From NCBI GenBank assembly GCA_963790305.1, contig CAWBOC010000005.1, positions 768,001-832,000 on the forward strand: 64,000 bases of DNA, read 5' to 3'. This DNA is from an uncultured Gemmatimonadaceae bacterium (GTDB lineage: Bacteria > Gemmatimonadota > Gemmatimonadetes > Gemmatimonadales > Gemmatimonadaceae). A model generated the notes under the pieces. The model searched no databases. It was not told the origin of the DNA and saw only the letters and a program-made list of their open reading frames with translations. Both the position numbers and the translations under genes were made by a program. Positions 49,914 through 51,641 of the stretch are shown piece by piece (the first letter of the stretch is position 1; each line of letters starts with the position of its first letter).

Positions 49914-49998
49914 GAATGCGGAATGCGGAATGCGGATTGCGTGTAAGAACGCGGCCGTCACGCTGTCATCCAAATCCGCATTCCGCATTCCGCATTCT
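49914..49998. repeat. palindromic repeat, family C
   Basis: GAATGCGGAATGCGGAATGCGGATT ... AATCCGCATTCCGCATTCCGCATTC. Confidence 0.9.
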
Positions 49999-51067: not shown

Positions 51068-51179
51068 CCGAGGTAGTCGAGGTGGTCCAGGTCGTCGAGG
51101 AGATCGAAGGCGACACCGTGATGACCTGACCTCGATCACCTCGCCCACCTTGATGCACCTTGATGACCTCGACGACCTC
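51068..51179. repeat. palindromic repeat, family A, abutting the OsmC start codon
   Basis: GAGGTAGTCGAGGTGGTCCAGGTCGTCGAGG ... CCTTGATGCACCTTGATGACCTCGACGACCTC. Confidence 0.75.
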
Positions 51180-51641
51180 ATGTCTCTCTACGACTCCATA
51201 GTCACCGTCCAGAAAGTTCAAGGCACGCATCGGCGGGCGACGCTGCCGACGGGCCAGACGATCGATTTCGGCGTGCACGGCGCGATCGCGGCTCACTTCC
51301 GCCTTCAGGAGCAGCCGATGCCGCTGCCCGTGGATTACATCGTGGCATCGACCGCGGGGTGAATGCTCGGAACTCTCAATGGCGCGCTGGAGGCGCGTGG
51401 GATCAAGCTCGCTCCTGATGACATCTCGGCGTCAGCCACTGGCGTGAACGACCTGGTCGACGGAATCGTGAGGCTCACCTCGATCACCATCAGCTACCGC
51501 CTGCGCATCCCGAGCGGCTCGCGCGATGCCGTGGACCGCGCGCTCTCCCGCCACCAGGAGAAATGCCCGACCGCGGTGTCGCTCGCTGCCGCCATCGCCA
51601 TCGCCTGGACGGCCGACATCACCGAGCAGGCTGCCGCGTGA
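51180..51641 (+). CDS. OsmC family protein with in-frame TGA at 51360-51362; probable selenoprotein
   Basis: Two ORF-track halves are in the same frame: PVDYIVASTAG-TGA-MLGTL...HQEKCPTAVSL. The TGA sits at the first OsmC Cys position. Confidence 0.82.
51374..51402 (+). promoter_or_regulatory. candidate bacterial SECIS hairpin
   Basis: Stem GCGCGC (51382-87) / GCGCGT (51393-98), loop TGGAG starting 25 nt after the TGA; possible lower stem TCTC/GGGA. Confidence 0.6.

Follow-up and report, generated by a model that had tools for sequence, protein, structure and literature searches.

An OsmC-fold gene carrying a UGA codon in mid-frame was identified in DNA of an uncultured Gemmatimonadaceae bacterium (GCA_963790305.1, CAWBOC010000005.1, positions 768,001-832,000 of the forward strand), and this UGA is almost certainly decoded as selenocysteine (Sec, U) at the catalytic site. 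The 64,000-nt stretch analysed is called the window below, and positions given without a contig are positions within it; the sequencing runs holding it were labelled as soil metagenomes. We hold with high confidence that 51180-51641 is a real selenoprotein gene, and consider it highly probable that the full explanation is correct, namely one gene with a SECIS-guided Sec at residue 61 (U61) of a reductase that would, by analogy, resemble OsmC and Ohr.

The locus appears as two forward-strand open reading frames (ORFs), 51150-51362 and 51363-51641, which the initial annotation had joined as one frame split by a TGA and translated into a 153-residue protein with an IVASTAG-X-MLGT motif and a later CP; the ORF coordinates and the translation bore out both points. 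The two ORFs share one frame, with the TGA at 51360-51362 as their sole separator (ACC GCG GGG TGA ATG). Translation from the ATG at 51180 with TGA read as U gave ...DYIVASTAG-U-MLGTLNGALEAR..., the TGA thus standing within ...IVASTAG-U-MLGT..., and later ...HQEKCPTA..., in which the cysteine of KCPT is C129. The features of the locus and the Sec genes found elsewhere in the genome are collected in Table 1.

Table 1. Positions of the selenoprotein gene, its parts and neighbours in the window, and of the Sec machinery elsewhere in the same genome (G000).
Feature	Position	Strand	Remarks
Long intergenic hairpin, dispersed repeat	51069..51179	.	Directly upstream of start codon; TRF, fold -54.5 kcal/mol, z -4.1
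OsmC-fold selenoprotein gene	51180..51641	+	ATG 51180, terminal stop TGA 51639-51641, 153 residues/codons
D52 codon (PLPVDY), putative catalytic acid by sequence comparison	51333..51335	+	Nine residues before U61, invariant
In-frame UGA, read as selenocysteine U61	51360..51362	+	First (peroxidatic) Cys position of OsmC
bSECIS-type hairpin in coding sequence	51382..51398	+	Stem 51382-51387 / 51393-51398, loop UGGAG 51388-51392
C129 codon (KCPT), second (resolving) active-site Cys	51564..51566	+	Invariant C129 P130, 82 sequences
Esterase gene, secreted-type, PF00756	51638..52846	+	Pfam 8.3e-37; GTG start overlaps selenoprotein stop (GTGA)
selD	G000:C6:~122260-123214		359 bits; own in-frame TGA, ...RCAG-U-AAKMGPGDL
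tRNA-Sec	~100 nt downstream of selD, region G000:C6 to 123401		73 bits; ARAGORN tRNA-SeC, anticodon TCA
selA	G000:C9:116494-117698		Two pieces, 264 and 233 bits
selB	G000:C6:48894-50730		261 bits, second piece in other frame

The read-through protein scored 46.8 bits with the Pfam family OsmC (PF02566; cut-off 27.5), in a match that runs from residue 48 to residue 143 and so crosses the TGA. Searched separately, the C-terminal 92 residues scored 29.2 bits and the N-terminal 60 residues matched nothing in Pfam. These N-terminal 60 residues were conserved in 82 aligned sequences, with G31, V32, H33, G34, L49, P50 and D52 invariant and H17, R18 and R19 nearly invariant. On the contig of a more divergent relative, 24 of the 26 listed differences were third-position changes in a single frame, before as well as after the TGA, and this pattern, together with the conserved TGA, indicated that the two halves evolve as one coding sequence. 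RNA evidence came from a single metatranscriptome contig, which may contain DNA; it covered 51085-51222 only and stopped short of the UGA, too short a stretch to show that the gene is transcribed or its UGA read through.

Public databases hold the gene mostly as fragments, with 115 of the 120 best matches listed being C-terminal halves of 88-92 residues named 'OsmC family protein' or 'hypothetical protein', in keeping with the earlier remark that Sec-containing OsmC-like genes are usually split by gene callers. The locus could accordingly be viewed as two small genes, a 60-residue peptide running to the TGA and a 92-residue OsmC fragment started by stop-start coupling, a view that draws on the hundreds of 92-residue database entries and on the ATG found immediately after the TGA here and in 110 of 143 sequences. 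We consider this very unlikely. The next codon was CTA in 20 and CTG in 13 of those 143 sequences, which would leave a quarter of the family without an adjacent start codon for the second half. The 92-residue piece would lack the first half of the fold, and its Pfam score rises from 29.2 to 46.8 bits on read-through; the catalytic column would be lost, full-length Cys homologues exist, and the AlphaFold2 (AF2) model of the read-through protein is a single domain with a pLDDT of 95.8.

As a single gene, the sequence kept its TGA at the same column in every set of relatives compared. A six-frame search of the organism's own genome and 60 relatives (61 genomes, tallies that include G015) found an orthologue in eight other genomes, seven of the same genus and one of another, at 64-88% identity, and each of the eight contained exactly one internal TGA, at the same column and within STAG*MLGT or AAAG*MLGT. 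Taking one genome per species, a further scan yielded 238 relatives; the best 80 of these were kept, and TGA stood at the column in all 80. By submitter titles, the best 80 of the 238 comprised 55 Gemmatimonadota (including Longimicrobiales and Palauibacter), 10 Acidobacteriota, 6 Eisenbacteria, 1 Multivoradales, 1 'Deltaproteobacteria' and 7 unlabelled genomes. When 301 genomes sampled evenly across the phylum were searched, 75 had a match at E <= 1e-25, and all 81 matched places contained the TGA, including paralogues at only 37-45% identity. Gene frequency in this sample ranged by family, with carriers making up 21 of 23 and 38 of 47 genomes in two families and 3 of 69 in the window's own family.

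When a Cys-form protein served as the seed of a metagenome scan, 64 loci were recovered, 63 with TGA and one with TGC (L166), and the full-length homologues in the protein database (five among the 120 best matches listed) all had Cys at the column (AATGGCMLGTL). The column, at which the initial annotation had placed a conserved catalytic cysteine, held TGA or Cys in the homologues and no variable residue. Exceptions to TGA among the more than 200 orthologous places examined were the one TGC locus and the five Cys proteins.

Some genomes of the phylum sample held two copies of the family. The more divergent paralogues, which share 37-45% identity with the window protein, had one in-frame TGA (e.g. 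G292:C8:39830-40279, G130:C30:3788-4234, G182:C1:1897855-1898298), and their sequences suggest that they may form a second Sec-containing sub-clade. Three loci considered as distant TGA-form relatives (L032, L034, L035) were rejected, each being a canonical Cys OsmC gene whose TGA is the terminal stop.

Independent short-read contigs from soil metagenomes also covered the site. One of them (X4 record 14; 51183-51407) bridged the TGA with no difference at 51360-51362 and one other letter different, and a second (X2 record 7; 51225-51492) bridged the site and was unchanged at 51360-51362. A further contig (X1 record 2; 51157-51382, 0 differences) reaches 20 letters past the TGA and was not counted as bridging. 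The TGA was therefore retained when the reading of 51360-51362 was checked against sequence assembled independently of the window. A nonsense mutation, a pseudogene or an assembly error at this codon would be in line with an error-prone assembly, but the errors of this assembly are indels and not substitutions, the independent contigs retain the TGA, and the codon is conserved at more than 200 orthologous places in several labelled phyla. Since the TGA is kept in the relatives, the phylum sample, the metagenomes and the independent contigs, we regard an assembly error or a private nonsense mutation as exceedingly unlikely.

A hairpin of the bacterial SECIS type follows the UGA within the coding sequence. 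Its loop begins 25 nt past the TGA and its stem has 6 bp (7 with a U.G pair), and these coordinates agree with the GC stem and UGGAG loop originally described at that distance. The 21-nt hairpin alone folded at -10.6 kcal/mol (z -2.4; 5 of 200 shuffles as good), and the folds of a 71-nt stretch (51355-51425; z -1.33, 18 of 200 shuffles as good) and a 43-nt stretch (51360-51402; z 0.0, 90 of 200 shuffles as good) were no better than chance. Because the fold of the single GC-rich sequence did not go beyond shuffles, the significance of the hairpin was taken from comparison across sequences. RNAalifold predicted the same hairpin on 81 sequences, and in 143 sequences (123 distinct) 99.3% of 738 cells were standard pairs. 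Compensatory changes were observed at three of the six pairs, 23-39 (GC 100, GU 20, CG 2), 26-36 (CG 116, UA 5, GU 1) and 27-35 (AU 87, GC 28, GU 5), with 0 of 500 shuffles reaching either the observed covariation score or the paired fraction. In a control in which the partner was slid by 1-3 columns, pairing fell to 5-67%. Several stem changes joined a synonymous change on one arm to an amino-acid change on the other (e.g. GCG->GCA with GCG(Ala)->GUG(Val)), and we read this matching as selection on the RNA.

The bacterial SECIS model set out in the Fig. 2 legend of a 2026 review has a loop of 3-9 nt, a stem of 4-16 bp and an MFE <= -7.5 kcal/mol (PMC13188914), and places the element 16-37 nt from the UGA with a G in the first two loop positions, N1-G-[G|U]-N-N2 (PMC13188914). 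The window hairpin lies inside the limits quoted there for loop, stem, G position, spacing and energy, and the suggestion of a SECIS element held up both on these published constraints and on the covariation of the stem. The loop started with UGG in 116 of the 123 distinct rows and was UCGCC in 7 of the 123, which fails the G rule. In the only Cys-form DNA recovered (L166, one sequence), the corresponding stretch reads GGCGGC-CUC-GCCGCC, self-complementary by eye and without a UGG loop.

Both halves would likewise be kept under selection if the UGA were read through as Trp, Cys or Gly by a near-cognate tRNA, or if the code were reassigned, with no selenium involved. The gene's own terminator, however, is TGA, which argues that TGA is not generally a sense codon here. 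Homologues have Cys at this position, as is the hallmark of Sec/Cys pairs, the hairpin that stands at the right distance covaries and has the geometry of a SECIS, and carriers of the gene possess Sec machinery, so that we find insertion of a residue other than Sec highly improbable.

The initial annotation had held that the gene implies Sec decoding in this organism. The machinery was all present in its own genome (G000; 13 contigs, 94% complete), where selA, selB, selD and tRNA-Sec were each found, and to this extent the implication stood; it is qualified by the state of selA, selB and selD, which are frameshifted in this assembly. The TGA of selD lies in the N-terminal glycine-rich segment, which we take to be where Sec-containing SelDs carry Sec. 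Among the 61 genomes (own and 60 relatives), selA was above the cut-off in 49, was found in 9 of the 9 genomes with the TGA form, and the TGA form was absent from every genome where selA was not found. In all five complete carrier chromosomes labelled as different phyla, selA was intact and a tRNA-Sec scored 67-80 bits.

Frameshifts in this assembly numbered two in selA, one in selB and one in selD, that is four in about 4.3 kb. We took 147 long ORFs in 20 regions of G008, which is the closest relative and a short-read assembly; 126 of the ORFs had an orthologue here, and we found 35 frame-change junctions in 25 of the 126 orthologous ORFs over 56,042 residues, or about 0.21 per kb, which is an undercount with short pieces missed. 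This agrees with the earlier remark that the lesions seen are indels rather than nonsense substitutions. The essential gene rpoC (C9:421854-425883) was split across two frames and rpoB was not split, and 7 junctions fell in four consecutive ORFs including selA, a sign of poor sequence in that region. The 35 junctions, the split rpoC and the 7 junctions in four ORFs mark the assembly as indel-rich, most so around selA, and apparent pseudogenes in this genome are to be viewed with caution given an assembly so rich in frameshifts.

The same lesions bear on whether the lineage has a genuine Sec gene but the Sec pathway is decaying in this strain, in which case the gene would end at the UGA and be non-functional here. 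Decay would fit the four frameshifts that selA, selB and selD carry within about 4.3 kb, against the mean of 0.21 per kb, and also the intact selA of six of eight same-genus genomes. However, the essential rpoC is likewise split in two frames, 25 of the 126 orthologous ORFs are frameshifted relative to the short-read relative, and the ORFs adjoining selA are equally damaged (7 junctions in four consecutive ORFs). The Sec gene, its SECIS and the Sec codon of selD are intact, and short-read contigs depart from the assembly at 51155-51160 as well, where they show single-base gaps. We consider decay in this strain unlikely, and read the frameshifts in selA, selB and selD as probable assembly artefacts, though their density exceeds the genome mean.

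The AF2 model of the read-through protein formed one compact domain (pTM 0.89). A Foldseek search against the PDB gave 63 matches at E <= 0.001, those listed being OsmC, Ohr or OsmC-like proteins. The top match was the OsmC-like protein Ta0195 (2onf_A; TM 0.80/0.86), and further matches included 6mjn, the M. pneumoniae OsmC-like protein (1lql), E. coli OsmC (1nye/1qwi), 1ml8, T. thermophilus OsmC (1ukk) and several Ohr. The sole solved relative found by sequence, in a search with the family profile, was 1ukk (E 4.9e-4), with AATGG[C] aligned to AAHAGC and EKCPTA aligned to EGCPVS. In the AF2 model U61 is in the middle of a long helix (residues 50-72) and C129 is where helix 115-128 breaks off before helix 130-135, positions which we take to be the sites of the peroxidatic and resolving cysteines in OsmC/Ohr. 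U/C61 and C129-P130, the two active-site positions of OsmC, were invariant in the 82 sequences. D52, nine residues before U61, occupies the site of the second Glu of NPEEL/PEEL in OsmC/Ohr (compare NPEELIAAAHAGC of canonical paralogues), and because its position matches that Glu in the sequence comparison it would be the catalytic acid.

With U61, C129 and D52 placed like the active site of OsmC/Ohr, a peroxidase-type mechanism appears most likely, with Sec and Cys as the two residues of a hydroperoxide reductase cycle like that of those families. The UGA at 51360 would be recoded by SelB and tRNA-Sec, guided by the hairpin GGCGCGC-UGGAG-GCGCGU 22 nt downstream within the coding sequence. On the model of OsmC and Ohr, the product would be a dimeric hydroperoxide reductase in which the U61 selenolate attacks ROOH to give a selenenic acid, C129 resolves the selenenic acid to a selenenylsulfide, and the selenenylsulfide is reduced by a dithiol donor, which may be a lipoyl protein or of thioredoxin type. 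The active-site acid and Arg would be supplied by D52 and the conserved H17-R18-R19. What we infer for this protein is selenium insertion, the peroxidase activity with its substrate and reductant, and the part played by D52 and by R18/R19. As its scores fall far below the curated OsmC and OsmC_like_Se cut-offs, ascribing peroxidase activity to it means extrapolating from one subfamily to another. The initial annotation had described a Sec/Cys peroxidase-like protein, of which the Sec/Cys column and the OsmC fold stood, and which lies outside the curated OsmC, Ohr and OsmC_like_Se cut-offs.

Upstream of the selenoprotein gene are genes for an amino-acid permease and a RidA-family protein, and a 246-residue ORF without family. 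Downstream, the esterase gene is probably co-transcribed with it, in this genus only, as its GTG start overlaps the stop of the selenoprotein gene, and this overlap with the esterase is limited to the genus; start-overlapping downstream ORFs were also observed at three other loci (L052, L055, L056). The nearest flanking ORFs of 80 loci, called with a crude GC3-based caller, showed lineage-specific synteny only, and no conserved partner pointing to a reductant or a regulator was found among them. Since the neighbours change with lineage, gene context adds nothing on function.

In the intergenic hairpin directly upstream of the start codon, each arm repeats a 9-nt unit, in inverted orientation to the other: (CGAGGTNGT)x3.6 and (TGACCTCGA)x5.8. 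In a blastn-short search the left arm had 42 further matches and the right arm 6, spread over 11 of the 13 contigs, and orthologous loci of the same genus had the same hairpin architecture with a different 9-mer. This hairpin (51069-51179) resembles a dispersed palindromic element of the REP-like kind and takes no part in the Sec mechanism. Short-read contigs break at it, and at 51155-51160 single bases of the window were absent from two independent contigs (X4, DNA; X8, RNA library), gaps that are due to indels of the assembly or else to a varying length of the upstream repeat array. A second intergenic palindrome was found between the permease and RidA genes (49914-49997), with perfect 25-nt inverted arms of tandem 7-nt units (GAATGCG) and 34 nt between the arms.

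On the gene evidence, this organism and many of its relatives would decode UGA as selenocysteine. A whole clade of OsmC-type antioxidant genes is stored publicly as 92-residue fragments, mis-split by annotation, and correction would alter selenoproteome counts for soil phyla. The family also provides a clean Sec-versus-Cys pair for asking why selenium persists at a peroxidatic site. We lean, with modest conviction, towards a distinct OsmC-fold subfamily in which Sec is nearly fixed across genomes labelled Gemmatimonadota, Acidobacteriota, Eisenbacteria and others. Were Sec nearly fixed in this way, the proteins would be among the commonest soil-bacterial selenoproteins missed by curated models and annotation pipelines, and the family would be a natural case of an enzyme rarely tolerating reversion to Cys. 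No new principle is involved, since OsmC-like selenoproteins were described in 2005.

Placement against curated models was made by score. The window protein reached 22.8 bits against the 95-bit cut-off of NCBIfam NF041052 (OsmC_like_Se, 'OsmC-related (seleno)protein'), and all 82 clade members matched this model weakly, with a best E of 1e-9 and none near 95 bits. True NF041052 members above the cut-off numbered 0 in 301 genomes of the phylum (a tally that includes G141). Against the OsmC peroxiredoxin model TIGR03562 the window protein scored 24.3 bits with a cut-off of 85.8, and it fell outside the Ohr peroxiredoxin model TIGR03561, which one of the 82 relatives matched (E 0.0091). The weak match to NF041052 and the scores below the OsmC and Ohr cut-offs set the clade apart as a separate Sec-containing branch of the OsmC superfamily.

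The OsmC-like selenoprotein family was described from the Sargasso Sea survey of Zhang, Fomenko and Gladyshev (2005), whose family entry gives 3 sequences, COG1765 and the motif UxxT (PMC1088965), and the corresponding entry of the 2026 review lists it as PF02566 with UxxT (PMC13188914). No description of the present OsmC-fold clade was found in a search by title and abstract, which turned up the marine surveys of 2005 and 2008 and reviews, and whose scope left aside subscription journals and supplementary tables. OsmC-like selenoproteins are thus known, and what is new, as judged from sequence comparison, is a separate clade that lies below the NF041052 cut-off and is truncated in public annotation. 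As far as the published family entries describe them, the marine OsmC-like selenoproteins (NF041052) resemble the window protein in their OsmC fold, in Sec at the active-site Cys and in a SECIS hairpin just downstream. They differ in motif, UxxT in the marine family entry (PMC1088965) against U-M-L-G-T in the window clade, and in source, the family as entered being marine whereas the window clade was found mainly in genomes labelled Gemmatimonadota, Acidobacteriota and Eisenbacteria. The organism's genome also contains a canonical all-Cys OsmC (G000:C10:59683-59988). With OsmC and Ohr the window protein shares the fold, the placing of the first Cys site in a central helix and of the second Cys in CP, and an acid nine positions before the first, and it differs from them in having Asp for Glu and Sec for Cys, with 11-19% identity to the solved chains.
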